Shown: positions 9,373 to 38,961 of the stretch, piece by piece | Layout of the letters: every line of letters starts with the position of its first letter | How positions within the stretch are numbered: position 1 is the first letter of the stretch | Assembly: GCF_054482595.1 (NCBI RefSeq) | Contig: NZ_CM137008.1 | DNA length: 64,000 bases | Strand: one strand, 5' to 3' | The notes under the pieces: model-generated | Told to the model about the DNA's origin: nothing | What the model saw: only the letters and a program-made list of their open reading frames with translations | Database searches by the model: none | Made by a program: the position numbers and the translations under genes

Positions 9373-9460
9373 GGTGAGGTGTCCGAGTGGCTGAAGGAGC
9401 ACGCCTGGAAAGTGTGTATACGGCAACGTATCGGGGGTTCGAATCCCCCCCTCACCGCCA
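9373..9460 (+). tRNA. serX: tRNA-Ser (anticodon GGA), class II with long variable arm, 88 nt
   Basis: GGTGAGGTGTCCGAGTGGCTGAAGGAGCACGCCTGGAAAGTG...GGTTCGAATCC...CTCACCGCCA; 7-nt anticodon loop CUGGAAA; T-loop GGTTCGAATCC; encoded CCA. Confidence 0.92.
9447..9460 (+). repeat. attL core: 14-bp direct repeat (ccccctcaccgcca) forming the serX 3' end
   Basis: Identical 14-mer recurs at 51067..51080 in the same orientation, immediately before a terminator-like hairpin that would be the native serX downstream sequence. Confidence 0.65.
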
Positions 9461-9609: not shown

Positions 9610-10452
9610 CTATACTGCCAGCATGTCAGGATAGTGTTTTGCGATAATATCATTCAGTCTGTCAACCAGTTCTGGTTTCCTGAACGTGATGTGTGCGGAG
9701 CCCTTCTTAAAGTATCTGATGCTGAACATCTCATCTTCATAGTCCTCTTTACCCTGAACAGACTGGATGTGGTCATCCAGACGAAGGGTGATGTTTTCCC
9801 GGTTGTCGGGGATCGGTTTGCCGCTGAACAGGTGCAGCATTCTTTCCAGGTCGGCAAGTCGATCTACCTGGTGCCCGGTGATAAGATGAAATCCCCACCG
9901 GTCCCATCTCACCAGATTGTTGACGATAATTTTACTGCCAAATTTACAGGGGCAATTAGTTTTGTAATTCCAGCTCAATCCCCTGAAGACGTTGATCACC
10001 CCTCGCTCAAACACTTCATCTTTGTTCTGGTGCAGTTGTTCAAATGTGCTCAGAATGTTCGCTTCACTGACTTCCGGAAAATTATCATACTCCAGTGACC
10101 GGTACCATGTATCACGGGCCTGTGCATCCATTAAGGAAAGCATCCCTGAACGTTGCATCAGGTCACGCCAGATTTCTCGGTCAAGATTCCGGGTAATGGC
10201 TTTCATTGCTGTTTCGGGTTTCTCCATCAGCCAGCAACCGCAGCGAAAATCCTGTTTCATGGCCCAGTCCGGGGCGGTTTTACCTCCAATACTTTCTGTC
10301 ATTGATGAGATTTCAGCCAGTTGCCGGATAAGTGTGTCGATTTGCAGCAGTGTACTCTTTCGTACAGCCAGAATGTGGCTGACTGAGGTTGAGCAGATAA
10401 CGTCCGTATGCCCGTTGACCACTTCCGGATGGGAGAGTGTGATTGCAGACAT
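9610..10452 (-). CDS. conserved island protein, probably DUF4942 family (280 aa)
   Basis: ORF track; position downstream of the CbtA toxin module at the island end as in CP4-like elements. Family name recalled, not searched. Confidence 0.5.
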   Translation of the reverse strand: MSAITLSHPEVVNGHTDVICSTSVSHILAVRKSTLLQIDTLIRQLAEISSMTESIGGKTAPDWAMKQDFRCGCWLMEKPETAMKAITRNLDREIWRDLMQRSGMLSLMDAQARDTWYRSLEYDNFPEVSEANILSTFEQLHQNKDEVFERGVINVFRGLSWNYKTNCPCKFGSKIIVNNLVRWDRWGFHLITGHQVDRLADLERMLHLFSGKPIPDNRENITLRLDDHIQSVQGKEDYEDEMFSIRYFKKGSAHITFRKPELVDRLNDIIAKHYPDMLAV

Positions 10453-10536
10453 AATTGATATTCCTTTTGGTTTATAAACGAAAACGCCAGCCGTATTCAG
10501 GCTGGCGTCAGTGGAATGAAGTCTGGTGAGTAAGAC

Positions 10537-10734
10537 TCACCTGTTCTGTTGCAGAAGCTGCTGTTGGCGCAGGGTACGGATATCTTCCCTGGCCTGTTCA
10601 ATGCAGGGCAGCAGTGCTGCTGAATCCGTTTTATCCTCATCGTTGTCGAAGATAATCCCTGATTCGCAGTCAATATTGTCCTGCAGCCACGCAATCAGAA
10701 TATCCAGCGCCGTTTCTGTGGTTAATGATTTCAT
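10537..10734 (-). CDS. small conserved hypothetical protein (YeeW/YpjJ-like position, 65 aa)
   Basis: ORF track; acidic small protein co-oriented with neighbours. Confidence 0.35.
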   Translation of the reverse strand: MKSLTTETALDILIAWLQDNIDCESGIIFDNDEDKTDSAALLPCIEQAREDIRTLRQQQLLQQNR

Positions 10735-10750
10735 GTTGTGAATTTACGGG

Positions 10751-11239
10751 TTACCAGTCGAAAGTGGGGAACCCCGGCAGACATTCTGCGCCGGCGTCCA
10801 GATGAATGAGACTGACGCCATAACGCCGGGTGAGAGTGACGACCAGACGACGGAACGTTCTTGACAGGCCCAGGCGTTTAAGCCGCAGAACCGGGTACGA
10901 CCATGCATCGGTACGTAACAGATAGCCGCTGCCTGTAAAATGAATCCATTCTGTTTCGCCGTCGTCATTAGTCTGGTGTGACAGCGAGTACAGCCAGGCG
11001 TTGTCCGTTTCCGTGATATGTGCGGTACTGCAACGTATGCCGGTAAGGGTTGTTAACGGTGGTGGTGTACTGGTTGACTGCTGGTCGGATTTATCGACCA
11101 CGCGGAGTGAATAACCGTTTTCAGAGACCTTGTTAATCAGTTCAGCGAGATTAACACCATCGACGTCAACGACAATGCGCCCCATGTTCAGCGCCTGCAT
11201 GTTAATGCTGTCGGCTTCCGGCGTCAGGGAAAGGTTCAT
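10751..11239 (-). CDS. hypothetical protein downstream of cbtA (possibly DUF5983-like, 162 aa)
   Basis: ORF track; start overlaps the cbtA stop by 4 nt, suggesting co-transcription. Confidence 0.4.
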
Positions 11240-11619
11240 TGTTTCGCCTCCTCCGGATGCTTGCCCAGGGTAATGTTATTTACCATTCTGTAATTGTCCC
11301 GGGTCATCAGGCCGGTCGCCCTGCGAGCCCGGAGAATATCAATGCTGTTGATTAACTGAGACGACGGGGCTCCTGCGCTGAATCCCGGCTGGTCAGTTCG
11401 TACCAGCACGTATTTTTCAACGAGAAAGTTCACCGCGTCACACAGTGAAATCCCTGCCTCAATATGCTGCTCAATCACACGTTCATCAGCGAACGGTGTG
11501 TCATTCAACGTAAGGCCATAGTGCTGGTCCAGCAGTCGGGTGAGCAGTGTCTGCCAGATTTCAACCGGAGACGGGCAGCGCGATGCCGCCCGTACGTGTG
11601 TGTCGGGTAATGTTTTCAT
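11236..11619 (-). CDS. cbtA: type IV toxin, CbtA/YeeV/YkfI family (cytoskeleton-targeting)
   Basis: Internal start MKTLPDTHV... followed by [54 protein letters not shown], close to recalled YeeV. Confidence 0.8.
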
Positions 11620-11695
11620 ACTGAAGGTTTTCCTGATATGCAGAGATGAAAAATGGAAAAGTGGCGTGGTGAAAGCACCAGGCCGGAGCAGAAGG

Positions 11696-12076
11696 CTATT
11701 CCGGAGGGTTACTTTCCGTTTCGGTCGCAGGATAAACAGCCAGATAAACGTAACCACAGGAGCCGAGGGTGTCGGCATCGCAGGTCAGCCCTTTCGCATA
11801 CAGCGTGACGGTATGCTGATGCCGGGGATTCAGTTCACCGCTGGTGAGCATGAGTTCCAGTTGTTTCATCAGCAGTGGAAAAGCCTGGTCCAGATGGTAT
11901 GCATCCGCATTGCTGAACCGGCCTCTGATACCGGCGCGGTCTGCAAGGTAATGCAACCGGTTACCCTCCTGCACCAGACGTGCCCCGAAACAGGGCGTCA
12001 CGATGCAGGGCAGCCCCCACCAGGGGCGGTCTTTGTTGTCGTCGGGAAGCGTTGTCCCGGGGAGTGTGTCTGACAC
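11696..12076 (-). CDS. cbeA: type IV antitoxin, CbeA/YeeU family
   Basis: GTG start at 12076 preceded by gagga; product [54 protein letters not shown]..., close to recalled YeeU; 76 bp upstream of cbtA. Confidence 0.8.
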
Positions 12077-12086
12077 GATAAAATCC

Positions 12087-12770
12087 TCACAGAAAATCGG
12101 TGAATGATAGTTTAACGATGACGGGGCAGCCGGCGCGCAGACCGGCTTCGGTGAAGGTATATTCGTTGATGAGAAGGGCCTCATCCACAGCGGCGTCTGA
12201 GGTCAGCCAGTCGTACTCGTTTTCCAGTTGACGGTACAACCAGAAGGCCAGGTCGCGCAGGGCTTCGCTGACTGCGGCTTCCGCATCGGTTGTCATAGCC
12301 TGACCAGTCGGACTGTTCCGGGTGACGGTGATATCCATGCAGTACGGATGGCAGTAACGTCCCCGGTGGTGGATTTCAGCCTGCAGTTGCCAGAAGTTAC
12401 GCTTCTGCACCGCCTGCAGGGCATCCGCGATACGATGAAGCTCACGGTCCTGCGGGGCATACACCCCGACTCTCCTGGCTGTTGCTGACTGCCAGTGCCA
12501 GCGTCCTTCAAAACAGGCTCCGTCCCCCTGGCTGCAGAATCCGCTGAACCAGATGCACGGCTCTTCCATAAACCTGCCGTTGCTGAGCCGGATAACACGC
12601 TGGCGGAGGTCAATCCCGAAAATGCCACAGACCTCCCTGAAGTCCCCATACACGTTTTCATACCAGTTGCTGTCAGCATGATGCTGACGGTACCAGTCGC
12701 GGGCTTTTTCCTGTGCGGTGGAGGATAGCTCATTCAGTGTATACACAGTGGTGGTGATAATTCTGCTCAT
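12087..12770 (-). CDS. hypothetical protein (227 aa) inserted between yeeT-like and cbeA; family not recognised
   Basis: ORF track; tightly packed between 12789 and 12076; Trp/Cys-rich (CIWFSGFCSQGDGACFEGRWHW, HHRGRYCHPYC). Confidence 0.5.
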   Translation of the reverse strand: MSRIITTTVYTLNELSSTAQEKARDWYRQHHADSNWYENVYGDFREVCGIFGIDLRQRVIRLSNGRFMEEPCIWFSGFCSQGDGACFEGRWHWQSATARRVGVYAPQDRELHRIADALQAVQKRNFWQLQAEIHHRGRYCHPYCMDITVTRNSPTGQAMTTDAEAAVSEALRDLAFWLYRQLENEYDWLTSDAAVDEALLINEYTFTEAGLRAGCPVIVKLSFTDFL

Positions 12771-12788
12771 CAGAGTGCCCTTACTGAC

Positions 12789-13010
12789 TCAGTTCAGAGT
12801 GACGTTCATCAGCCGGACATACGGGCCAAAACTGTCCTTACGGCGTTCAGCAAACACGGCCAGCACACCGGGAATATCCTGCACTTCACGACCGGTATAC
12901 GCCTCAGCACTGCCGTGCCAGCGGTATTTGCCGGTACAGAAAGGAAAAAGACGGGATGCCGGATGTTGTTGGTGAATACGCATGGCTTCACCACGGGTGA
13001 TGATTTTCAT
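12789..13010 (-). CDS. yeeT: YeeT/YkfH-family protein (DUF987, 73 aa)
   Basis: MKIITRGEAMRIHQQHPASRLFPFCTGKYRWHGSAEAYTGREVQDIPGVLAVFAERRKDSFGPYVRLMNVTLN, near-identical to recalled K-12 YeeT. Confidence 0.75.
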   Translation of the reverse strand: MKIITRGEAMRIHQQHPASRLFPFCTGKYRWHGSAEAYTGREVQDIPGVLAVFAERRKDSFGPYVRLMNVTLN

Positions 13011-13072
13011 AGTGTGATACCTCTGAAGACAGAAGATAAAAGTGCAAACAAGCGTGATGTGGTTGTGACGGG

Positions 13073-13549
13073 TTAAAGCAGACCATGTTCGGCAAAGGAG
13101 AAAACCTGGTTGCCACCGACTATCAGATGGTCCGGCACCCGGATATCCACCAGGCCCAGTGCCTGTACCAGACGTTCCGTGATAAGGCGGTCTGCCTTGC
13201 TGGGTGTGACTTCACCGGACGGGTGATTGTGCGCCAGCACCACGGCAGCGGCATTGTGGTACAGGGCGCGTTTAATCACTTCCCGGGGATGGACTTCCGT
13301 GCGGTTGATGGTGCCGGTGAAGAGGGTTTCACCGGCAATCAGTTGATTCTGGTTATTCAGATACAGCACCCGGAATTCTTCACGCTCCAGTCCCGCCATG
13401 TTCAGAATCAGCCATTCCCGTGCCGCACGGGTGGAGGTGAAGGCCACGCCGGGTTCATGAAGATGGCGGTCCAGAGTTTTCAGGGCCCGCAGAATGAGAC
13501 TGCGCTCGCCGGGCGTCATCTCTCCGGGCAGAAAGGAAAGCTGCTGCAT
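13073..13549 (-). CDS. yeeS: RadC-like JAB-domain protein (YeeS/YkfG family)
   Basis: Internal start MQQLSFLPGEMTPGERSLILRAL...; JAB metalloprotease motif HNHPSGEVTPSKAD. Confidence 0.8.
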   Translation of the reverse strand: MQQLSFLPGEMTPGERSLILRALKTLDRHLHEPGVAFTSTRAAREWLILNMAGLEREEFRVLYLNNQNQLIAGETLFTGTINRTEVHPREVIKRALYHNAAAVVLAHNHPSGEVTPSKADRLITERLVQALGLVDIRVPDHLIVGGNQVFSFAEHGLL

Positions 13550-13564
13550 TGTCCCTGCCTCCAT

Positions 13565-14050
13565 TCAGTCGATGATGCGCATAATGGCGCTGCATTCCGG
13601 ATGCTGCAGGGCGTAATCCCGCAGCCGGTAATAATGGACCGTCATGGCATAACACTCCGTACGACAGGCGTGATGACTGTACGTCATCAGACAGGCAGCA
13701 ATGCCGGCAGCTTCCGGACTCATTTCAGCGCGGTTACCGTTCATGGCATTGAACAGTACCCATGTTTCGTCATCATCGTCATCCGGTTCGGGTGCCATAA
13801 ATGCCCCGCCGTTGTTCAGGGTGTACAGATTCCAGATACCACCGCAGTAGTCTTCACACAGACGGTCCATCCAGCCGAAGACACGGGGCTCCAGGGCCAC
13901 CCACTGTGGAATGAGGCCAAAGTGCTGCGGCCAGAAGCTGATGCGCTGTTCATCAGGGACTATGGTGGCAACCAGCTGAGGCTGGTCATTCCCTGATGCA
14001 GCGGTTACGGAAACAGAAGGAGTGGTGGAATTATGCAAGACGGTTGTCAT
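13565..14050 (-). CDS. antirestriction protein, KlcA/ArdB-like (YafX/YfjX family)
   Basis: ORF track 161 aa; acidic stretch PEPDDDDDETW; conserved position upstream of radC-like gene in CP4-type islands. Confidence 0.6.
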   Translation of the reverse strand: MTTVLHNSTTPSVSVTAASGNDQPQLVATIVPDEQRISFWPQHFGLIPQWVALEPRVFGWMDRLCEDYCGGIWNLYTLNNGGAFMAPEPDDDDDETWVLFNAMNGNRAEMSPEAAGIAACLMTYSHHACRTECYAMTVHYYRLRDYALQHPECSAIMRIID

Positions 14051-14141
14051 GAGATTATTCCTTATAAAAAGTAAATGAATGGAAGAAATCCCGGGGGAAG
14101 GGACAGACGTGAGTCAGAACTGCGCTTTCAGGGAAACGGCA

Positions 14142-14960
14142 TCAGCGCATACTCTCCAGCAGCGTTTCAGCCATCACCCACAATGCGCGGTTGAGCTTAA
14201 TGTCGGTGTCGATGCTGTGAATGGCACGGGTATGGATACGTTTTCCTCTGGCACTGCGACCGGAAATCCCGCCTTTCAGCATATTCTCCTGAATGGTCTG
14301 ATAAGCACTCCACAGGTCCTTACCGTAATCCTCCCGGCGTCGTGGCGTCAGAATGTCGGCGGTGGTGACGGGCCGATGTTCGTCACCATAACGGTAAGTC
14401 AGTGCCGCCTGTGCCAGCGCCTGGCGTGCCGGTGGCGGCAGAATCAGCGACTGCATGGCATCACGCTTTTCCTCAATCCGGTCAAAAACCCCCACCACCT
14501 CGTAAGCCCCTTCAATAACTTTCTCCACCACATTTCCCCGGTGCGGAACACGCACTTCCCCCAGAGACTGACCACAGACGCATCCGTTCTGACAGACGAA
14601 CCTGAAGTAACCCGGCAGCATCTGGTAGCTGGAGGTACCGTCATGGGAGTTGAGCAGAATGATTTCAGGGACATGTTCTCCGTTTATCTCTCCGGCCCGC
14701 CGCAGACGCAGCATATGTTTTGTGTATCCCCGGCGGCCCGGGTCGCGCACACGGGTCTGGCAGGCGAAGAATGGCTGAAAGCCTTCCCGCTGCAGGCTTT
14801 CCAGTACGGTGATGGTGGGAATGTACGCATATCGTTTACTGCGGGAAGTATGCCGGTCTTCACCGAAAATACTGGGAACATAGTGCATCAGTTCTTCGTG
14901 TGTCAGCGGACGGTCACGGCGTATCTGGTTCGTATAACCAAAACGACTGGCTAGTCGCAT
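14142..14960 (-). CDS. DUF932-domain protein (YafZ/YfjQ family, 272 aa)
   Basis: MRLASRFGYTNQIRRDRPLTHEELMHYVPSIFGEDRHTSRSKRYAYIPTITVLESLQREGFQPFF..., matches recalled YfjQ/YafZ. Confidence 0.7.
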   Translation of the reverse strand: MRLASRFGYTNQIRRDRPLTHEELMHYVPSIFGEDRHTSRSKRYAYIPTITVLESLQREGFQPFFACQTRVRDPGRRGYTKHMLRLRRAGEINGEHVPEIILLNSHDGTSSYQMLPGYFRFVCQNGCVCGQSLGEVRVPHRGNVVEKVIEGAYEVVGVFDRIEEKRDAMQSLILPPPARQALAQAALTYRYGDEHRPVTTADILTPRRREDYGKDLWSAYQTIQENMLKGGISGRSARGKRIHTRAIHSIDTDIKLNRALWVMAETLLESMR

Positions 14961-15236
14961 AATTTGCTCCTTATGAATGAGTTAGCGGTATAAATGAAAA
15001 AGCCGCGTCTCCCGGAGAAGACACGGCCTGACAGATGAAATGAATGACGTTTATTGTCTGAGAAGCCCTTCACTGGCGAGCTGCGTATTTTTATGGAAGG
15101 AGATCACCCAATAACCCCATCGGGATCGGGTAATAACCGGCCAGACTGTGATCGATTCAGATGCCATTTGGCAGCAAAAGAGCCTTCGGCAATAAACGTG
15201 ATGTACAACCCGGCATATCTGTTACTCCCTGAAAGT

Positions 15237-15265
15237 AAAAGGCCCCGGTCATTATGACCGGGGCC
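15237..15265 (-). terminator. rho-independent terminator downstream of flu
   Basis: Hairpin ggccccggtca / tgaccggggcc (15241-15265) followed on the minus strand by ttttacttt. Confidence 0.6.
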
Positions 15266-15286
15266 TGAAGGGGAGTGACCTGATTA

Positions 15287-18133
15287 TCAGAAAGTCACAT
15301 TCAGCGTGGCCTGACCGTTATAGCCTTCGGCGCTGCTGCCGCTGACGCTGTGGGCATAACCGGCCTGAACGCCCAGGGTGATATTTTCCCGGACACGGGC
15401 TTCCAGTCCGGCCTGCAGGTCCAGTGACGTGCCATTCTGGGACGGTGAGAACGTCATGTTACTGCCGGCGGCGGCTGTCCCCATGCTCATGTCACCCCGG
15501 GAACTGAAGGTGCGGATAACAGAAGGCTGTACCCACCAGTTCACCGGCAGTTCACGCACACGGTGTTTTGCACTGTCGCGCAGGGTGTCACGGGATGAGG
15601 TGCCTTCACCAAAGCTCATATCGTTGTGGCTGCCCAGACGGAAGCCGGCACGCATATGTTGTGCACTGCCATGCCCGAACTTCACATAACCGGCGTTATC
15701 CTGGCCGTCATCCAGGGAAAGTCCCTGCCAGGTGTACTGCAGTTGTGGTTCCAGCATCAGGTTGTCAGTGATACTGAAGGGCAGACCGGTTTCCAGTGAG
15801 CCCAGCCAGCCCCAGCCCCGGGCGCGGAAGTCGTTATTGTCCGATGACGCTTTCATGCTGTGGCGGGTTCCCTGTGCCATAATGTCAGCCCACAGGCCGG
15901 AGGACGTGTGTACCAGATTCAGGTATCCGCCCAGGCTGCCGGCATCATCCCGGACCGTGCCGGCGCGGGAGCCGTCATCATCCTTAACATCAACGGAAGA
16001 ATGGCCAGCAGCACTATATACCCCCGCGGTCACAGACATACCGGCAACCTCTGTTCTCAGCAGGTCACTCTCCAGACGGACGAAGCCATAGCTGCCGCTG
16101 CTTTCCGGCGTGGCCCCACGGGCAATACCGCCGTTGTTATCGTGACCGAGATGACCGCCCTGAATGCTGAGACGGACGCTGTTATTTTCACCGTTTACAC
16201 CGGTCTGATGGCTGCGGGAGCCTGCCAGAATCCGGTCATAGTCCATTGCCTGTGTCAGCATGGAAGCATACAGGGGGACTTCAGCACGATAAGCATTTTC
16301 ACTGCGCAGGTACCAGTCTTCATCGCTGTCACGGTTCAGGGTGTAGTTAAAGGCACCGGCCTGAAGCGGGCGACTCAGGGCAAACGCACCTTCTTCTGTG
16401 GTGGCACCATTCTGTGCATCCACAACCCGGATACCCTGTCCGGAAGTTGCCACCCCGAGGTTACTGTTTCCGACATTTGTGAACGCAAGCCAGGTTTTGC
16501 CGGTTGCCTGACCACCATTAATCACCAGCTGGTCAGAGGCATTGCTGCCATCAAGGCGAACACGCATATTGATGGTGCCACCCTGACCGGTGAGGTTACT
16601 GGTGGTCAGTTTATGGAACGTTACCGGGGCGTCGCCTTTTGCAACAGCACGGCTCAGGACGGCATCCTGTGTCGTCTGATTATCAAAGCGAATCTCCCCT
16701 GCGTTAACAATATCGCCGGTACTGACCACATCACCATTCAGTACCATGCTGGCGCCTTTACTGAGCTGTGTTCTGCCACTCAGACTTCCCCCGGCAGCCA
16801 GCGTCAGTGTTCCACGATGTCCGACAGTGGTGTTGCCAGCCTGTCCCCCGGCATTAACCGTAAAGCTGCCGCCATTTTCCAGCAGCAGGCCGCTGGCCTG
16901 ACCGGATATGCCATCAATACTGAACTTACCGCTGGCATTGGTCCCCTCAACAGTGGCACCACTGTCTGCAATCAGGGCACCACCGGATGTCATGGTGACA
17001 CCTGTCGCCTTACCACCGGCAGACACTGCCAGGGTACCGCCGTCATCCACCCGTGTTTTCTGCGCTGAATGACCCTCCAGTACATCCAGACGACCGCCGG
17101 ACTCCAGAACAACACCGTCAGCCTTACCGTTTTCCACCGCGAAATTGCCCAGACGGTTGCTGCCGGTGACGGTTGCCGCCGTACTGGTGACCAGTGCGCC
17201 TCCCTGCTTCAGGGTGACATTCGTGGCTGTACCACCGGCGTTCACCTGCAGTTTGCCTTTCTGGTTAACGGTGGTGAAATCCGCCAGACCACCTTCCTTG
17301 ATAATCTGCCAGCCGTCACTGTTCACAACAGTGTCAGACGTTGTACCGCCGTTGTGTACATACTGGTTACCGCCATTCAGCGTGGTATCCAGTGCGTGGC
17401 CATGTACCGTCTGGTCGCCGCCGGCATAAACCACAGTGGTATTTGCTGTTCCTTCAACAGTCACAATCTGACGACCATTTTTATTGATGGTGGTACGTAC
17501 GGCATTTCCGCGAACAAACTGCCCGGTATCACCATTTTCTGCATCCGGTCCTCCTTCTGCGCCGGTATTCACAACGGTGTCTGTTGCCACTGCGCCGGGT
17601 TTGACGACCTGCCAGCCCTTATCATTAATGACGGTTCCTGTGGCTATCGCACCTTCATGCATCCACTGCTCGCCACCATTCAGCGTGGTGTTCAGTGCCA
17701 GTCCCTTCAGGCTTTGTCCGCCTCCTTCATTGATTATTGTGTCTGTAGCCTTTCCCCCGGCACCTACAAACTGGAGCCCGCCGCTGCTGATGGTGGTATT
17801 ACTGGCTGTGCCGCCATCCTGTACCCATTGCCCGCCGGTATTGGCCTCGTTATCCGTCCCATACTCCAGCCCGGTACTGATGGTCATTCCGTTGGTCGTA
17901 CCGAAGACAATCTGGTTGTCATGATTTGTCAGTGTTCCGCCGTTCACGGTTTCTCCCGCCTCTACAACCGTGTCAGCAGCCAGTGCCGGGACTGGCGTGA
18001 CAGCAGCAAGAGACAGCGCAACCGCCACACCGGCGCGTTTTCCCCGTGAGCGGGCCAGTTCGGAAGCCACCACCAGGGTGCCCGTAATGTGATTCCATAC
18101 CAGCCTGTAGCTGGTGTTCAGATGTCGTTTCAT
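15287..18133 (-). CDS. flu: antigen 43 (Ag43) self-associating autotransporter adhesin
   Basis: Start MKRHLNTSYRLVWNHITGTLVVASELARSRGKRAGVAVALSLAAVTPVPALAADTVVEAGETVNGGTL (ATG 18133 with aagga RBS); repetitive beta-helix passenger; C-terminal beta-barrel ending ...QATLNVTF. Confidence 0.9.
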   Translation of the reverse strand: MKRHLNTSYRLVWNHITGTLVVASELARSRGKRAGVAVALSLAAVTPVPALAADTVVEAGETVNGGTLTNHDNQIVFGTTNGMTISTGLEYGTDNEANTGGQWVQDGGTASNTTISSGGLQFVGAGGKATDTIINEGGGQSLKGLALNTTLNGGEQWMHEGAIATGTVINDKGWQVVKPGAVATDTVVNTGAEGGPDAENGDTGQFVRGNAVRTTINKNGRQIVTVEGTANTTVVYAGGDQTVHGHALDTTLNGGNQYVHNGGTTSDTVVNSDGWQIIKEGGLADFTTVNQKGKLQVNAGGTATNVTLKQGGALVTSTAATVTGSNRLGNFAVENGKADGVVLESGGRLDVLEGHSAQKTRVDDGGTLAVSAGGKATGVTMTSGGALIADSGATVEGTNASGKFSIDGISGQASGLLLENGGSFTVNAGGQAGNTTVGHRGTLTLAAGGSLSGRTQLSKGASMVLNGDVVSTGDIVNAGEIRFDNQTTQDAVLSRAVAKGDAPVTFHKLTTSNLTGQGGTINMRVRLDGSNASDQLVINGGQATGKTWLAFTNVGNSNLGVATSGQGIRVVDAQNGATTEEGAFALSRPLQAGAFNYTLNRDSDEDWYLRSENAYRAEVPLYASMLTQAMDYDRILAGSRSHQTGVNGENNSVRLSIQGGHLGHDNNGGIARGATPESSGSYGFVRLESDLLRTEVAGMSVTAGVYSAAGHSSVDVKDDDGSRAGTVRDDAGSLGGYLNLVHTSSGLWADIMAQGTRHSMKASSDNNDFRARGWGWLGSLETGLPFSITDNLMLEPQLQYTWQGLSLDDGQDNAGYVKFGHGSAQHMRAGFRLGSHNDMSFGEGTSSRDTLRDSAKHRVRELPVNWWVQPSVIRTFSSRGDMSMGTAAAGSNMTFSPSQNGTSLDLQAGLEARVRENITLGVQAGYAHSVSGSSAEGYNGQATLNVTF

Positions 18134-18339
18134 CAGCTTTTCCTTACAGAGGGTGAATAAAAAAGCCGGTACCCACAAATGTGGATACCGGCAGGTACAA
18201 AACAGCATGGTCAGATAAAGTGGTTTTTCCCGGACATAAATGCTTCCCCTCTCTCATCCGCCAGAGAAGTATCAGTCCGTTGTGTGCAATTCCGTTCTGC
18301 ATGATGAAGAGATTCAGCTGCCTTTTCGCAGACCATTAA

Positions 18340-18395
18340 CCACCATAAACGATCGATGACAACGATCGATACCTGTTTTATCGATCGTTTTATTC
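18340..18395 (-). promoter_or_regulatory. agn43 phase-variation switch: three clustered GATC (Dam) sites overlapping the OxyR operator
   Basis: GATC at 18351, 18364 and 18383 within 36 bp, ~220 bp upstream of the flu start; matches the known Dam/OxyR switch architecture. Confidence 0.7.
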
Positions 18396-18504
18396 TATTA
18401 ACAGCAAGGCAGTCACGCAAGGGAAAGAGGTGGGTATGAGGTGTTTGTATCATGTTTTCAGTTGGTTAACGCAATGTAATCAGGCATTTCCCCTGGCAGA
18501 ATGT

Positions 18505-19377
18505 TCAGAAGAAAATCCAGTTCCATACAGCGCGGGCAACAGAGACCACCGTGTCACGGACGACACGCAGAACCGTACGAGCCACAGAGGCAACACAGAC
18601 GCTCTCCGCCGTGTCAAATATCCGGTCCACCGCACCGGTAAACTGTTCACGGGCCTGCCCCCGGACAGATTCCGTGCACAGCTCGTCCTGCAGGCGGGTC
18701 ATCAGGGGACTGGCGGCATGGTCGGGAAGTGCTGTCATGAGCGCACTGACCAGCGTATCCAGTTCCCAGCCGGTGCGGGCCGATACGGCCACAACCGGAT
18801 GTACGGGCCGGAACAGACGGAATACCGCCTCCGTTTTTTCGCGAATGTTCTGTGCCTGTGCGGGAGAAGGCTGAATACCGGCCATATCCCATTCATGGCA
18901 GGGCTCCGTTTTATCGGCCTGCGTCACCACAAACAGCACCTGCTGATGTCCCCGGTGCAGGATGTGTCGCCAGAAATACTCATCCACAGACAGGGCACGG
19001 TCATCGGCTTTAATCAGCCACAGTACCAGGTCAAGTTCAGGCAGAATGTCACGGTACAGGGCTTCATACTCTGCATCCCTGTCCCGGCTCTCGCCCACCC
19101 CGGGCAGGTCAGTGATAACCATGCTGTGACCGTGGCCACTCAGACGGAAGCGCCGCACTTCCCGGGTGCCGGCGTGAACATCACTGACCGGGGTGACCTC
19201 CCCCTGAAACAGTGCATTACAGAGTGAGGATTTACCGGCCCCGCTTTTCCCCATAATGCCAATCACGGGTTCGTGACTGGTGAGTTTACGCAGATGTTCC
19301 AGGATGTGACGGGAAAGTGAGTAAGGCAGGGAAGAAAGTGGTTTTTCAATTGCCTCAATGGCATCAGACGGATTCAT
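18505..19377 (-). CDS. yeeP: YeeP/YkfA-family GTPase (50S-ribosome-binding GTPase fold)
   Basis: Internal start MNPSDAIEAIEKPL...; P-loop GIMGKSGAGKSS; DxxG motif DLPGVG. Confidence 0.75.
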   Translation of the reverse strand: MNPSDAIEAIEKPLSSLPYSLSRHILEHLRKLTSHEPVIGIMGKSGAGKSSLCNALFQGEVTPVSDVHAGTREVRRFRLSGHGHSMVITDLPGVGESRDRDAEYEALYRDILPELDLVLWLIKADDRALSVDEYFWRHILHRGHQQVLFVVTQADKTEPCHEWDMAGIQPSPAQAQNIREKTEAVFRLFRPVHPVVAVSARTGWELDTLVSALMTALPDHAASPLMTRLQDELCTESVRGQAREQFTGAVDRIFDTAESVCVASVARTVLRVVRDTVVSVARAVWNWIFF

Positions 19378-19640
19378 ACATGTATTCCCGGTGAAAAAAG
19401 ACAAAACCCCGCGCACCGGAAAGGTGGCGGGGGATTCACGGAGATAATATCTGTCTGAAATTATTTAGAATGCACCTGGTGCACTGCAAAGGAAAGGCAA
19501 TATTCCGTTCCTCCTCCTTGTCGTGAATACCCCAGGTATCTCACAATGTACACCGACTTACTCCGGGGCTGCCTGAACCACAAGATTGCTGTAGAATTGC
19601 CCCCAATGATTCAGGTCCAAACCAGGAAAATGGATTAAAA

Positions 19641-21212
19641 ATGACAAGTATTCAACAACGAGCAGAACTGCACCGCCAGATATGGCAAATTGCCAATGAT
19701 GTCAGAGGTTCTGTTGACGGATGGGATTTTAAGCAATACGTTCTGGGCGCGCTTTTCTACCGTTTTATCAGCGAAAATTTTTCCAGCTATATTGAAGCCG
19801 GTGATGACAGTATCTGTTATGCGAAACTGGATGACAGCGTAATTACTGATGACATTAAAGACGATGCCATCAAAACTAAAGGCTACTTCATCTACCCAAG
19901 TCAGCTTTTCTGCAACGTAGCTGCGAAAGCAAATACCAATGACAGACTGAATGCAGATTTAAACAGTATCTTCGTTGCTATCGAAAGTTCTGCTTACGGT
20001 TACCCTTCAGAAGCTGACATCAAAGGTTTGTTTGCTGATTTCGATACCACCAGTAACCGCCTGGGTAACACCGTTAAGGATAAAAATGCCCGCCTGGCTG
20101 CGGTTCTGAAAGGGGTTGAAGGGTTAAAACTTGGTGACTTCAACGAACATCAGATTGACCTGTTCGGCGATGCCTATGAGTTCCTGATTTCTAACTATGC
20201 GGCGAATGCTGGTAAGTCAGGCGGCGAGTTTTTTACACCGCAGCATGTCTCTAAGCTGATTGCACAACTGGCTATGCACGGGCAGACCCACGTTAACAAA
20301 ATCTACGACCCAGCCGCAGGTTCCGGTTCGCTGTTGTTACAGGCGAAAAAGCAGTTTGATGACCATATCATCGAAGAAGGCTTTTTTGGTCAGGAGATCA
20401 ACCATACGACCTATAACCTGGCGCGTATGAACATGTTTTTGCACAACATCAACTACGACAAGTTTGATATCAAGCTGGGCAATACGCTGACTGAGCCGCA
20501 CTTCAGAGATGAAAAACCGTTTGATGCCATCGTTTCTAACCCGCCGTATTCAGTGAAATGGATTGGCAGCGATGACCCGACGCTGATTAACGATGAGCGT
20601 TTTGCCCCGGCTGGCGTCCTGGCCCCCAAATCAAAAGCTGACTTCGCGTTTGTATTACATGCGCTGAACTATCTTTCGGCCAAAGGTCGCGCCGCGATTG
20701 TCTGCTTCCCGGGTATTTTTTACCGTGGCGGCGCAGAGCAGAAAATCCGTCAGTATCTGGTCGATAATAACTATGTCGAAACCGTGATTTCACTGGCACC
20801 GAACCTGTTCTTTGGCACCACCATTGCCGTAAACATTCTGGTGCTGTCTAAACATAAAACGGATACCAAAGTTCAGTTTATTGACGCCAGCGAACTGTTC
20901 AAAAAAGAGACTAACAACAATATCCTGACCGATGCCCATATCGAACAGATTATGCAGGTATTTGCCAGCAAGGAAGATGTTGCTCATCTGGCGAAATCTG
21001 TTGCGTTTGAGACTGTTGTCGCGAATGACTATAACCTGTCGGTGAGCAGCTATGTGGAAGCGAAAGATAACCGCGAAATTATCAATATTGCTGAACTGAA
21101 TGCAGAGCTGAAAACCACGGTCAGCAAAATCGACCAGTTGCGTAAAGATATTGATGCAATTGTGGCTGAAATTGAAGGCTGCGAGGTGCAGGTAATGACT
21201 CCAACTTATTGA
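19641..21212 (+). CDS. hsdM: type I restriction-modification N6-adenine methyltransferase subunit HsdM; last ~7 codons supplied by IS1
   Basis: 523 aa; SAM-binding motif [10 protein letters not shown] and catalytic NPPYS; C-terminus ...[14 protein letters not shown] reads into the IS1 inverted repeat (IS1 begins at 21191). No hsdS or hsdR nearby. Confidence 0.8.
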
Positions 21213-21958
21213 TAGTGTTTTATGTTCAGATAATGCCCGATGACTTTGTCATGCAGCTCCACCGATTTTGAGAACGACAGCGACTTCCGTCCCAGCCGTG
21301 CCAGGTGCTGCCTCAGATTCAGGTTATGCCGCTCAATTCGCTGCGTATATCGCTTGCTGATTACGTGCAGCTTTCCCTTCAGGCGGGATTCATACAGCGG
21401 CCAGCCATCCGTCATCCATATCACCACGTCAAAGGGTGACAGCAGGCTCATAAGACGCCCCAGCGTCGCCATAGTGCGTTCACCGAATACGTGCGCAACA
21501 ACCGTCTTCCGGAGCCTGTCATACGCGTAAAACAGCCAGCGCTGGCGCGATTTAGCCCCGACGTATCCCCACTGTTCGTCCATTTCCGCGCAGACGATGA
21601 CGTCACTGCCCGGCTGTATGCGCGAGGTTACCGACTGCGGCCTGAGTTTTTTAAATGGCGGAAAATCGTGTTGAGGCCAGCGCCCATAATGCGGGCGGTT
21701 GCCCGGCATCCAACGCCATTCATGGCCATATCAATGATTTTCTGGTGCGTACCGGGTTGAGAAGCGGTGTAAGTGAACTGCAGTTGCCATGTTTTACGGC
21801 AGTGAGAGCAGAGATAGCGCTGATGTCCGGCAGTACTTTTACCGTTACGCACCACCCCGTCAGTAGCTGAACAGGAGGGACAGCTGATAGAAACAGAAGC
21901 CACTGGAGCACCTCAAAAACACCATCATACACTAAATCAGTAAGTTGGCACCATTACC
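21191..21958 (-). mobile_element. IS1 (768 bp)
   Basis: Terminal inverted repeats ggtaatgactccaacttattgat (21191-) and atcagtaagttggcaccattacc (-21958); internal insA/insB. Flanking 9-mers differ (cgaggtgca vs caaaaatac), so no target-site duplication. Confidence 0.9.
21206..21903 (-). CDS. insAB: IS1 transposase genes insA (21628..21903) and insB frame (21206..21709); InsAB' made by -1 frameshift
   Basis: Ins[44 protein letters not shown]...; InsB ...[21 protein letters not shown]... Confidence 0.9.
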
Positions 21959-22061
21959 CAAAAATACATGCAACTAAAACAGGGTTATTTACAGACAAAT
22001 TTAAAATTAGCTGAAAGTTAATATTATTTTTTCGGAGCCTTTTCTGGCCCCGAATATTGCT

Positions 22062-35534: not shown

Positions 35535-37427
35535 TTAGCCAAGAATCGAACGGCGAACTTTATAATAATATTTGATGAGCTTATTTCTTCTTGGCGAACC
35601 GACAGGAGCATATTTGTTAACATATGGCATTAAAGCTCTTTTAATCTTTGTCTGCAGTAACACGGTTTGCTGCAGTTCAGTATGTTGGTTAGGTACTACC
35701 GTGGCCACAGGTAACTGGCGATAGTAGATTTCTTTCTCCCATGGCGTACTTAAAACATTCTCAAGAAAATCATCATAGAAATCGACTTTCTCAGTATTCC
35801 ATGGTTTGTTTTCACCCGCATAGTGAATCATTTTTGGATTTCTTCTGGCTTGCAAAAAGCGCATATAGGTTGAAAACTTGAGATTCGGGAAGAAATCATC
35901 GGTATTACCATTACCATGGTACACGTTCCATTCTAATGGTAAGAATTTGACTCGGCCAAAGAAGACTTTGTTCATGATATCCTGATCTAAGAACCAATAC
36001 TTTTTGGCTTTCAATGCTGACATCAATTGAGCAAAGGTATTCTCTGTAACCATTTGTTCGACATTAAAAACAATAATCCCGGCCTGAAAATATTCGTCAG
36101 GATTAGTCATTCCTAATGTCTTTTTCAGGTATTGCTCTGCAGGCATAATGCCATCATCTGATTCTGACATGGTACCAAACTTCACAAACCCTTCCATGAC
36201 GATGTCTTTAACAGCGGCAACCAGGTTAGTGCCGATCTCGACATCCAGAAGTGTCGCCAAATCAGCCTTCACCACGGTGTCAGAATCGATAAACACAACT
36301 TTTTTATACTCGCGGAAAAGTTGCGGGATGAACAAGCGCGCATAGGTCGACGCACTAAAATGTGCACGGGTATGAACATCACTCATCTCAGTGAATGAAT
36401 TCACATCAAAAAAGCGCAATGATATGTTGTTATGACCAGCAACTAGCTTGATAAGGCGTTGTTTATTTAAATGACTGACCTTATTTTCCAGAACAACGAT
36501 ATCATAGTTTCTGCTCGCATCAGAATGGAGAACAATTGAATTGATTAATGCCCCGCCACTTAATGCATAGTTATTATCAAAACTAATAACAACCGGTACG
36601 CTTTCGTCAAAAACGGGCTTTAATTTACCATTAAATGTTTCAGCAGTAACAAACGTGCGCTGTAGTTCTTTTATTTTTAGCTGTTTATCTTGTTGACATT
36701 TGATGATATAGATATTGAATAAACGCTCAGCAATGTGTCCTATAACTCGTTTTTCTTGAGCGTTGTAGTTATTCATCGAAATCCGATCTTCAAGATTAGA
36801 CAAAATAGCAAAAAGCCATTCAGAATAATCCAGGAACATGTCTTTGCGCATAACAAACATGTTCGTATAATAACCATCAGTTGCATTATTGAATTGTTGA
36901 ATCGCAGCTTTATATTGTGGATACAGCTCTTCAACGACATCCAGGGCAGACTGATAGTCTTTAATGTGTAAAAACTCACCTTTTGCATAATGATCAAGGT
37001 TATTCTTACTTCCTGCCGATGTTACCGACCATTTTTTGGGTAACAGCAGATCATATCCATCGACGCAGGTGCTTATGGATTCATCACTTAATCCAAACTG
37101 GCTTTCGTATTCGGCATTGATGAGCGGGTAGTTGACTACCCCCCAGTTATCCTCAGGATGATTTTGTTGTTCTGCAAAGTTCAAGTGTCTGCGGTAATGC
37201 ATGAATCCCACATAGTCAGCCAGAGATTCATTCTTCCACACCCAGTAGTGGGCCGTCAGCTCACAATAGAAGGGGTTTTTAAAGGAAATGTTGTCTCCGC
37301 TATCATCCCCTTCACAGCCAATATCATTATAAGTATTAGCCTTCCCGACATGCAGTGGTTTAATAATAGAGGCATTTAGAAAAGCACTGGGTTTGTGGTG
37401 ACATGTATAAATTTTGATACTATTCAT
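35535..37427 (-). CDS. wbbM: bifunctional galactosyltransferase, WbbM-like (DUF4422 N-terminal plus GT8 C-terminal, 630 aa)
   Basis: N-terminal CELTAHYWVWKN-containing domain; C-terminal GT8 (VVISFDNNYALSGGALINSIVLH, DSDTVV); size matches Klebsiella WbbM (recalled). Confidence 0.65.
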   Translation of the reverse strand: MNSIKIYTCHHKPSAFLNASIIKPLHVGKANTYNDIGCEGDDSGDNISFKNPFYCELTAHYWVWKNESLADYVGFMHYRRHLNFAEQQNHPEDNWGVVNYPLINAEYESQFGLSDESISTCVDGYDLLLPKKWSVTSAGSKNNLDHYAKGEFLHIKDYQSALDVVEELYPQYKAAIQQFNNATDGYYTNMFVMRKDMFLDYSEWLFAILSNLEDRISMNNYNAQEKRVIGHIAERLFNIYIIKCQQDKQLKIKELQRTFVTAETFNGKLKPVFDESVPVVISFDNNYALSGGALINSIVLHSDASRNYDIVVLENKVSHLNKQRLIKLVAGHNNISLRFFDVNSFTEMSDVHTRAHFSASTYARLFIPQLFREYKKVVFIDSDTVVKADLATLLDVEIGTNLVAAVKDIVMEGFVKFGTMSESDDGIMPAEQYLKKTLGMTNPDEYFQAGIIVFNVEQMVTENTFAQLMSALKAKKYWFLDQDIMNKVFFGRVKFLPLEWNVYHGNGNTDDFFPNLKFSTYMRFLQARRNPKMIHYAGENKPWNTEKVDFYDDFLENVLSTPWEKEIYYRQLPVATVVPNQHTELQQTVLLQTKIKRALMPYVNKYAPVGSPRRNKLIKYYYKVRRSILG

Positions 37428-37441
37428 CTTATTACCAATTA

Positions 37442-38182
37442 TTAAGCCATTGCTTGCTTGTAAAGTTCAATGATTCTCTCTGCTGAGCCAATTTCGCGGA
37501 GTTTATGGTTTTCGATCCAAACAACTCTGTCACAGATTTTTTCAACATCACTCATATTGTGGCTAACGAATAATATCGTTACACCCTTATTTTTGAAGTC
37601 TCGTATTGTTTGTATACATTTGGCCTGGAACGAAATGTCACCGACAGCAAGTACCTCATCGATAATAAGTATATCGGGTTCTACCTGGCTGATGACAGAG
37701 AATCCAAGCTTCGCAAGCATACCACTTGAGTACACGCGAATAGGTTCGTCAATGAAATCACCCAGCTCGGAGAACTCAATTATCCGATCCATCCGTTGCT
37801 GAACCTCTTTGCGGCGTAGCCCAAGCAGGGTCGCATTGAGATAAATATTTTCTCGCCCGGTTAATTCAGGGTGAAAACCGCCGCCTAGCTCAAGCATTGA
37901 GGCAACGCGTCCCTGGGTTGTAACAGTGCCTTTTGTAGGCTTAATGACGCCGGCCACCAGCCCGAGGGAGGTACTTTTCCCTGCGCCGTTACGACCAATC
38001 AGCGCTACGGCCTCGCCTTTACCCACGGTGAAGGTAATGTCTTCGATCGCAAGATATTTACGCCCTTTTAACAGCTGAAAAGCTCTTTTAGGGTGAAATA
38101 CGAGATCCTTAATTCCTGAGCCAATATGGTGGTAAAGAGGATACTCTTTCGTAACGTGACTAAAGTTTATTACTGGTTCCAT
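37442..38182 (-). CDS. wzt: O-polysaccharide ABC exporter ATP-binding protein (246 aa)
   Basis: Walker A GRNGAGKST, signature YSSGM, Walker B LIIDEVLAVGD; start overlaps wzm stop (taATG). Confidence 0.82.
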   Translation of the reverse strand: MEPVINFSHVTKEYPLYHHIGSGIKDLVFHPKRAFQLLKGRKYLAIEDITFTVGKGEAVALIGRNGAGKSTSLGLVAGVIKPTKGTVTTQGRVASMLELGGGFHPELTGRENIYLNATLLGLRRKEVQQRMDRIIEFSELGDFIDEPIRVYSSGMLAKLGFSVISQVEPDILIIDEVLAVGDISFQAKCIQTIRDFKNKGVTILFVSHNMSDVEKICDRVVWIENHKLREIGSAERIIELYKQAMA

Positions 38183-38961
38183 TACAAAATCTCTGCAAAT
38201 CGATATTTTAATTTATTAAAAATACTCAGGCCCACAATTGTCAGGACTAAACCTGTAATGTAAAGGATTGAAATATATTCATAATTTAAGACGCCATCCA
38301 TGAACAGCTGCCGCCAGCTGAGGATCATGCTTGCCAGAGGATTATAGGTAATAATCCAGCTAAATTTTTCAGGAATCATATCTGACGCATATAATATCGG
38401 CGTGCAATAAAACATGAGCATGATACCAAGGCTGACAAATCGCTCTAAATCCCTGAAGAACAGATTTAGCGTAGAAAATATGATTGAAATACCAAATGTA
38501 AAAATCACCTGACCAAGCGCAATAATTGGTACGCCCCAGAGCCATGAGAGCGATGGACGCATACCATACACGAACAGGAATGCAATAATCACAGGAATTG
38601 TACACAAGAAATGTACCCCTTCCATCATGACATTACTCAATGGAATAACTGAGCGCGGAAAAACTGTTTTTTTGATTATTTGCGCATTGGCTATAAACGA
38701 AAACAAGGAATTTGTCGCCGAGCTGGCAAACCATTGCCACGGAAATAAACCGGTAATCAAGAAAAGGGTATAATTCGGGATCTGCACTCGCATAACGAGC
38801 TTAAAAATGAAATAATATATCATTGCAAAAAGCAGTGGATTCGCAATTGACCATAAGTAACCAAATACGCTGCTTTTATAACGTACCTTTAAATCTTTGT
38901 TTGTTATAACAACAAGAAGATCAAACAAATACCCTATATTATACTTCATTTTTATACTCAT
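38182..38961 (-). CDS. wzm: O-polysaccharide ABC exporter permease (ABC-2 type, 259 aa)
   Basis: Six predicted hydrophobic segments; first gene of the operon downstream of the ops element. Confidence 0.8.
   Translation of the reverse strand: MSIKMKYNIGYLFDLLVVITNKDLKVRYKSSVFGYLWSIANPLLFAMIYYFIFKLVMRVQIPNYTLFLITGLFPWQWFASSATNSLFSFIANAQIIKKTVFPRSVIPLSNVMMEGVHFLCTIPVIIAFLFVYGMRPSLSWLWGVPIIALGQVIFTFGISIIFSTLNLFFRDLERFVSLGIMLMFYCTPILYASDMIPEKFSWIITYNPLASMILSWRQLFMDGVLNYEYISILYITGLVLTIVGLSIFNKLKYRFAEIL

Follow-up and report, generated by a model that had tools for sequence, protein, structure and literature searches.

A probable Dam/OxyR phase-variation operator of the agn43 type upstream of an island-borne Ag43/Cah adhesin gene in Escherichia coli

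Gene and genomic context

The window, i.e. the whole stretch of 64,000 nucleotides analysed here, carries on its minus strand an intact gene for an autotransporter adhesin of the Ag43/Cah family (18133..15287; 948 amino acids). The assignment was made with Pfam and with NCBIfam NF033177, which was matched from 1 to 948 of 948 with 1958 bits, well above the cutoff of 1200. The Pfam domains were ESPR, AIDA, AC_1 and Autotransporter (the beta-barrel), and the passenger domain matched the solved Ag43 structures 7KO9, 7KOH and 4KH3. The ATG at 18133..18131 (minus strand) was taken as start codon, in agreement with the RefSeq annotation of an identical locus and with the full-length NCBIfam match; a longer open reading frame beginning at 18208 was rejected as the real start because both of these favour 18133. 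A Shine-Dalgarno sequence, AAGGA, was read from the sequence at 18145..18141 on the same strand. Just 3' of the flu stop codon, a terminator-like hairpin consisting of GGCCCCGGTC-ATAAT-GACCGGGGCC followed by TTTT (15237..15265, minus strand) was read by eye.

The first-pass annotation had described the adhesin as island-borne, and the gene does lie in an island of about 40 kb adjoining tRNA-Ser(GGA). The island extends from this tRNA gene (9373-9460) to an integrase gene adjoining ycdU, and the csg and pga operons flank it. The window was 100% identical to several E. coli chromosomes, and since the locus shares this identity the host is E. coli. The genes dam and oxyR lie outside the 64-kb window; both are core genes of E. 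coli. Also present is a lone type I restriction-modification M subunit gene abutted by IS1 (19641-21212 and 21206-21903). No R or S subunit gene was found in the annotation of the surrounding ~40 kb, and the M subunit gene looks like a remnant. Positions 22062-38950 hold an island polysaccharide cluster that is riddled with insertion sequences and includes genes for glycosyltransferases, glf, an RfbB-type ABC exporter and a pyruvyl transferase.

Promoter and Dam target sites

A sigma-70 promoter of the agn43 type was placed on the minus strand downstream of a YeeP-like GTPase gene (19377..18505, minus strand). Its -35 hexamer, TTGCGT (18420..18415), was read from the sequence and by homology and is followed by a spacer of 17 bp (18414..18398) and by the -10 hexamer TAGAAT (18397..18392). 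The -35 hexamer was identical in 117 of 118 metagenomic homologues, whereas K-12 has TTGTCC at the same position; the -10 hexamer was identical in K-12 flu, in O157 cah and in 115 of the 118 metagenomic copies. A generic promoter scan, in which at least four of six matches were needed per hexamer, called no promoter at the operator, because the -35 hexamer matches the consensus at 3/6 bases only, and the promoter was placed by homology instead. Transcription would start at about 18385-18388, as predicted from the -10 hexamer. In strain EC958, a 5'RACE end of agn43 was mapped 228 nt upstream of the ATG (PMC4807369). Transferred by homology, this end falls into the spacer between the second and third GATC, ~24 nt further downstream than the start that the -10 hexamer predicts, and may reflect either RNA processing or a second transcription start.

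Three GATC sequences, the targets of Dam, follow the -10 hexamer within a total span of 36 bp. GATC-I (18386..18383) lies at or just past the predicted transcription start and at the 3' end of the OxyR half-site A' described below. GATC-II (18367..18364), 19 bp from GATC-I, lies at the 5' edge of half-site B, and GATC-III (18354..18351), a further 13 bp away, at its 3' edge. A sequence search returned the sites at 18351-18354, 18364-18367 and 18383-18386, so that the three positions given in the first-pass annotation (18351, 18364 and 18383) were exact. Its statement that the sites lie upstream of the Ag43 start is true on the minus strand only, with the ATG at 18133-18131 and the coding sequence at 18133..15287.

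The clustering of the three sites was rejected as evidence in itself. With 181 GATCs in the 64-kb window, at least one triple within 36 bp arose in 47% of random placements (P ~0.47), and the window holds three triples of 36 bp or less, the other two inside the coding sequences of pgaB and pgaC. Clustering alone is within chance; the regulatory meaning of the trio comes from homology. Dense GATC clusters were also observed at 59180-59285 (six sites in ~100 bp) and at 61011-61094, inside the pgaB and pgaC coding sequences, which means that groups of GATCs can arise without a regulatory context.

The surroundings of the trio are poor in GATC. No other site was found between 15153 and 20396, and the flu open reading frame of 2847 bp (15287-18133) contains none, against 7.6-10.4 expected (Poisson P ~5e-4). 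GATC has been reported as under-represented in mobile elements of ST131 (PMC4659465). The island stretch 9997-22566 (12.5 kb) contains seven GATCs only, three in the operator, three in a second trio and one at 20396. The second trio, at 15102, 15124 and 15150, is intergenic, between the flu stop codon and a DUF932 gene (window 15102-15153), and two of its sites come after the direct repeat GGTTATTnnnnGATC. These GATCs were kept in 13, 14 and 17 of 17 homologous copies, respectively. The second trio (15102-15153) was rejected as a part of the switch, as it is only partly conserved and the segment elsewhere overlaps remnants of a DUF905 gene.

The operator trio itself is non-random. This follows from a register that is the same as in K-12 flu and O157 cah, from the local GATC desert, from its coincidence with the top OxyR match of the window and from its conservation in natural copies, as set out below.

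Predicted OxyR operator and its inverted core

The region was scored with the published (Toledano) half-site consensus ATAGnTnnnAnCTAT, which has 10 specified positions per half-site. A predicted OxyR operator was obtained by consensus match at 18398..18352 on the minus strand, covering the -10 hexamer (18397..18392) and all three GATCs. Half-site A', ATAGAATAAAACGAT (18398..18384, minus strand), overlaps the -10 hexamer and GATC-I and matched at 8/10 positions; half-site B, ATCGTTGTCATCGAT (18366..18352, minus strand), is bracketed by GATC-II and GATC-III and also matched at 8/10. The two half-sites start 32 bp apart, and the composite with a spacer of N17 scored 16/20, the top score among the ~128,000 positions that the two strands of the 64-kb window offer, where the next best was 14. 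By this consensus match, an OxyR recognition sequence overlaps the GATCs and the promoter as in agn43-type switches. With the compact N7 spacing the best score in the region was 13/20, and the register used in K-12 gave 10/20 here as against 14/20 in K-12. Compact spacing was dropped as the main signal in view of the clear 16/20 at the extended N17 spacing, and OxyR may bind the window's operator in the extended geometry.

The region also contains a perfect 11-bp inverted repeat, AACGATCGATA / TATCGATCGTT (18361..18389), whose arms carry GATC-I and GATC-II. Its 7-nt loop, AAACAGG (18378..18372, minus strand), is the reverse complement of the loop in the K-12 family. When the 15-nt core between GATC-I and GATC-II was compared with cores of the K-12 family, 12/15 positions matched as reverse complement and 7-9/15 in forward orientation, with 0/7 in the loop in forward orientation (K12, EC5654, ST130 and DA61218 scored by script; AGR6128 compared by eye, ~11/15). 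In its simplest reading, this comparison would mean that an inversion of the hairpin loop separates two widespread operator families. The inversion flips an inner ATAG-like OxyR element and shifts it by 1 bp. A literature search for a palindrome or an inversion at agn43 returned nothing relevant.

Both families are common. A query of the window type matched ~3,550 genomes and one of the K-12 type ~2,260, a part of the latter being cross-matches to window-type copies, for example O157; by these counts, most E. coli operators carry the inverted core. The window's particular operator is uncommon: over its 63 bp, 49 E. coli records reached 99% identity or more. The centre of its GATC-II/III spacer is GTC, a rare triplet. 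One metagenomic copy was a mosaic of a K-12-type -35 hexamer and upstream sequence (TTGTCC...) with an operator and leader of the window type, a composition that indicates recombination within the conserved block of -10 hexamer and operator.

Conservation of the operator in natural populations

A query of 421 bp over the region matched 4,019 of 5,426 complete E. coli genomes, and in these matches the flanks were always annotated as "GTPase family protein" and "Ag43/Cah family autotransporter adhesin", cah or agn43. For a population sample, metagenomic copies were anchored on the downstream flank GTGGTTAATGGNCTGCGAAAA, i.e. independently of their GATC status, and 118 genuine operators were recovered, 70 of them distinct. 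All three GATCs were kept in 112 of the 118 (95%), and one GATC was lost in the other six. The inverted core was identical in 108.

Among the distinct copies, mean divergence per column was 17% in the promoter spacer and 0.7% in the -35 hexamer. From the -10 hexamer to GATC-III it was 2.3%, and 0.7% without the variable centre of the GATC-II/III spacer. This variable triplet (ACT, GCT, GGT, TAT and others; GTC here) is the unspecified nnn centre of half-site B, and its positions were the only freely variable ones in the 118 natural copies. Such a pattern is expected for a protein-binding operator that is kept by purifying selection. A scan of contigs across species, run with a pattern in which the GATC-II/III gap was one base too long, gave 111 matches, all of them chance matches in unrelated taxa.

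Degenerate alleles also occur. About 5% of natural operators of the family lack one GATC owing to a point mutation (GATC-I to AATC, GATC-II to AATC or TATC, GATC-III to TATC). Strain 14EC033 has lost GATC-I and has TAGAGT as its -10 hexamer, and strain CS6L has lost GATC-III. Operators of this kind are candidates for altered or locked switches. Because such alleles exist in nature (14EC033, CS6L), it is meaningful to call the window's copy intact, as the first-pass annotation had done; all three GATCs, the -10 hexamer, the TTG of the -35 hexamer and the 17-bp spacer are present in it.

The leader RNA and its terminator

The 5' leader of the Ag43 mRNA, about 250 nt in length, corresponds to the IsrC/IS102 RNA (18388..18152, minus strand). 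Rfam family RF00124 was matched over its whole model (1-206 of 206) with 71.6 bits, where the gathering score is 46 (E=6e-11). The leader contains an intrinsic terminator (18192..18159, minus strand) with a 12-bp stem (18192..18165, 8 GC pairs) followed by TTTTTT. The MFE fold and the centroid fold both contain this terminator. It ends about 26 nt upstream of the ATG, and its sequence hardly differs between the window, K-12 and O157. A passage in PMC5389530, citing Wallecha 2014, describes expression of flu as controlled by antitermination of IsrC.

The first-pass annotation had taken the nearby terminator and the Shine-Dalgarno-proximal ATG together as support for an expressible gene. The Shine-Dalgarno sequence and the ATG are conserved and the reading frame is intact. 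The terminator, however, sits in the leader between promoter and start codon, with no independent gene next to it, and attenuates expression rather than supporting it. The leader terminator is a second, attenuating layer of control, which does not replace the switch.

Interpretation

The region is very probably the regulatory region of an Ag43/Cah gene that works as a classical Dam/OxyR epigenetic phase switch, and the reading given in the first-pass annotation is thus supported. OxyR binding, the methylation states, the transcription start and ON/OFF switching in the window's strain are predicted from sequence and from the established model. In that model, OxyR sits on the operator while the GATCs are unmethylated, keeping the promoter silent and Dam away from the sites (OFF); methylation by Dam excludes OxyR (ON), and replication lets the two proteins compete anew (PMC4872104, PMC13337833, PMC3764049). 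For K-12, the work summarised in PMC13337833 and PMC4872104 shows that OxyR binds the operator when it is unmethylated and not after Dam methylation, and that Dam is kept out by bound OxyR; the K-12 operator is the only one that has been dissected biochemically.

Applied to the window, the model would run as follows. The sigma-70 promoter (TTGCGT, 17 bp, TAGAAT) would fire leftward, on the minus strand, and an OxyR tetramer would bind two half-sites, A' over the -10 hexamer and GATC-I, and B between GATC-II and GATC-III. With the three GATCs unmethylated, OxyR would occlude the promoter and shield the sites from Dam, giving a heritable OFF state. If Dam methylated the sites after replication before OxyR rebound, OxyR would no longer bind and transcription would proceed, giving a heritable ON state. 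Transcripts would then cross the ~250-nt IsrC/IS102 leader, whose terminator ends ~26 nt before the ATG, and read-through alone would make Ag43.

Rates or bias of switching could differ from those of K-12, given 11 differences in 47 operator bases, including the inverted core and the rare GTC triplet. A rival reading is that of a homologous switch whose function is skewed, in which the core inversion and the GTC triplet alter the affinity for OxyR in such a way that the promoter is mostly locked ON or OFF or switches at a rate far from that of K-12. The drop of the K-12-register N7 site from 14/20 to 10/20 speaks for such a skew, as does the replacement of the inner CTAT element by ACAG, shifted by 1 bp and flipped. 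The exact operator is rare (49 records), and sequence variation in regions of the gtr type is known to change the switch frequency (PMC2909390). The inverted core is, however, the majority form in E. coli and identical in 108 of 118 copies, both 8/10 half-sites are unchanged, and the GTC triplet occupies positions that are unspecified in the consensus and vary freely in nature. Moreover, an ST131 strain is strongly repressed by OxyR (PMC4807369), and the ST131 genome compared here has the inverted core. We therefore consider a functionally skewed switch unlikely.

Still less probable is that a short IsrC-like RNA is the main product of the promoter, with the terminator stopping most transcripts and the adhesin rarely being made whatever the methylation state. 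The terminator is strong (12-bp stem, 8 GC pairs, U6) and lies close to the ATG (~26 nt), the IS102/IsrC match spans the full model, and the passage in PMC5389530 places flu under antitermination of IsrC. K-12, however, has the same terminator and yet produces abundant Ag43 in ON cells (PMC3764049), the reading frame is intact here with its Shine-Dalgarno sequence and ATG conserved, and attenuation adds a second regulatory layer while leaving the switch in place. That the three GATCs are a chance cluster without regulatory role is effectively refuted: random placement readily yields a triple (47%) and two more occur in pgaB and pgaC, but the sites share their exact register with the characterised operator, 95% of copies keep all three sites against 17% divergence in the adjacent spacer, and the trio coincides with the top OxyR consensus site of the window.

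For the preferred reading, a classical Dam/OxyR switch, one refinement is put forward tentatively. OxyR may read agn43 operators mainly via the outer half-sites A' and B in an extended (reduced-form) geometry, similar to gtr, and switching rates specific to each allele, or the position of a compact (oxidised) tetramer, may depend on the flipped core. This suggestion comes from the core inversion together with the 16/20 match at a half-site spacing of 32 bp. Both the extended-geometry reading and the core inversion may already have been described in the literature.

The switch is already known, its exact sequence is present in RefSeq genomes, and nothing is added here to the mechanism of Ag43 control. 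What is added is the recognition of the terminator as a leader attenuator, the conservation of the operator at population level, and the inverted core that distinguishes a common operator family from that of K-12; as leads, both this core and the extended-geometry reading are minor. If the switch operates as predicted, it is very probable that only part of the cell population expresses the serX-island adhesin; this affects how data on aggregation, biofilm formation and vaccine antigens are read for strains that carry it.

Relation to characterised phase-variable operators

The first-pass annotation had referred to the known arrangement at agn43, had proposed a comparison with K-12 and had named a failure to align with the known operator as an argument against a switch. 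The region aligned, and the GATCs start 11, 30 and 43 nt from the start of the -10 hexamer in both sequences. The same offsets were found in O157 cah, ST131, ATCC 25922 and others, so that the window shows the fixed agn43-type arrangement of 19 + 13 bp beginning 11 nt past the -10 start. It has also been reported that both allelic groups of Ag43 have three GATCs with similar spacing (PMC2808357).

With K-12 agn43 (flu), the window shares the -10 hexamer TAGAAT, the TTG of the -35 hexamer, the spacer length of 17 bp and the offsets of GATC-I, -II and -III. Both 8/10 OxyR half-sites are likewise shared, A' being identical and B differing in its unspecified centre only. The leader terminator, the Shine-Dalgarno sequence, the near-identical start of the ESPR signal peptide and the upstream YeeP-like GTPase gene are further features in common. 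From the -10 hexamer to GATC-III, 36/47 bases are identical and 11/47 differ. The core loop is AAACAGG in the window and TCTATTT in K-12, in reverse-complemented orientation, and the centre of the GATC-II/III spacer is GTC in the window and TAT in K-12. The distance from the -10 hexamer to the ATG is 264 nt as against 233 nt in K-12, i.e. ~31 nt longer, with a divergent middle part of the leader, and the proteins belong to different length classes (948 aa in the window, 1039 aa in K-12).

Among the known systems, cah of O157:H7 and the Ag43 genes carried by ST131 and ATCC 25922 have an operator of the window's own family, with the inverted core, and agree with it in leader type and gene length class. 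Over 421 bp, the window was 91% identical to O157 and 97.9% to ST131. The operators of O157 cah, ST131 and ATCC 25922 differ from that of the window only in the three central bases of the GATC-II/III spacer (TAT/ACT instead of GTC) and in a few scattered substitutions. In the ST131 strain EC958, mutation of oxyR raised agn43 transcription 121-fold (PMC4807369); the ST131 genome examined here has an operator of the same family as the window.

In the gtr systems of Salmonella and P22, the OxyR half-sites each contain a pair of GATCs 13 bp apart (PMC2909390), as does half-site B of the window. The spacing of the gtr half-sites, calculated here from the published GATC coordinates, is ~32 bp and is matched by the spacing of A' and B; the authors of PMC2909390 attributed the gtr spacing to reduced OxyR. 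The gtr regions differ in having three half-sites and four GATCs, arranged as two alternative OxyR sites, of which one activates and the other represses, whereas a single, repressing site with three GATCs is predicted for the window.
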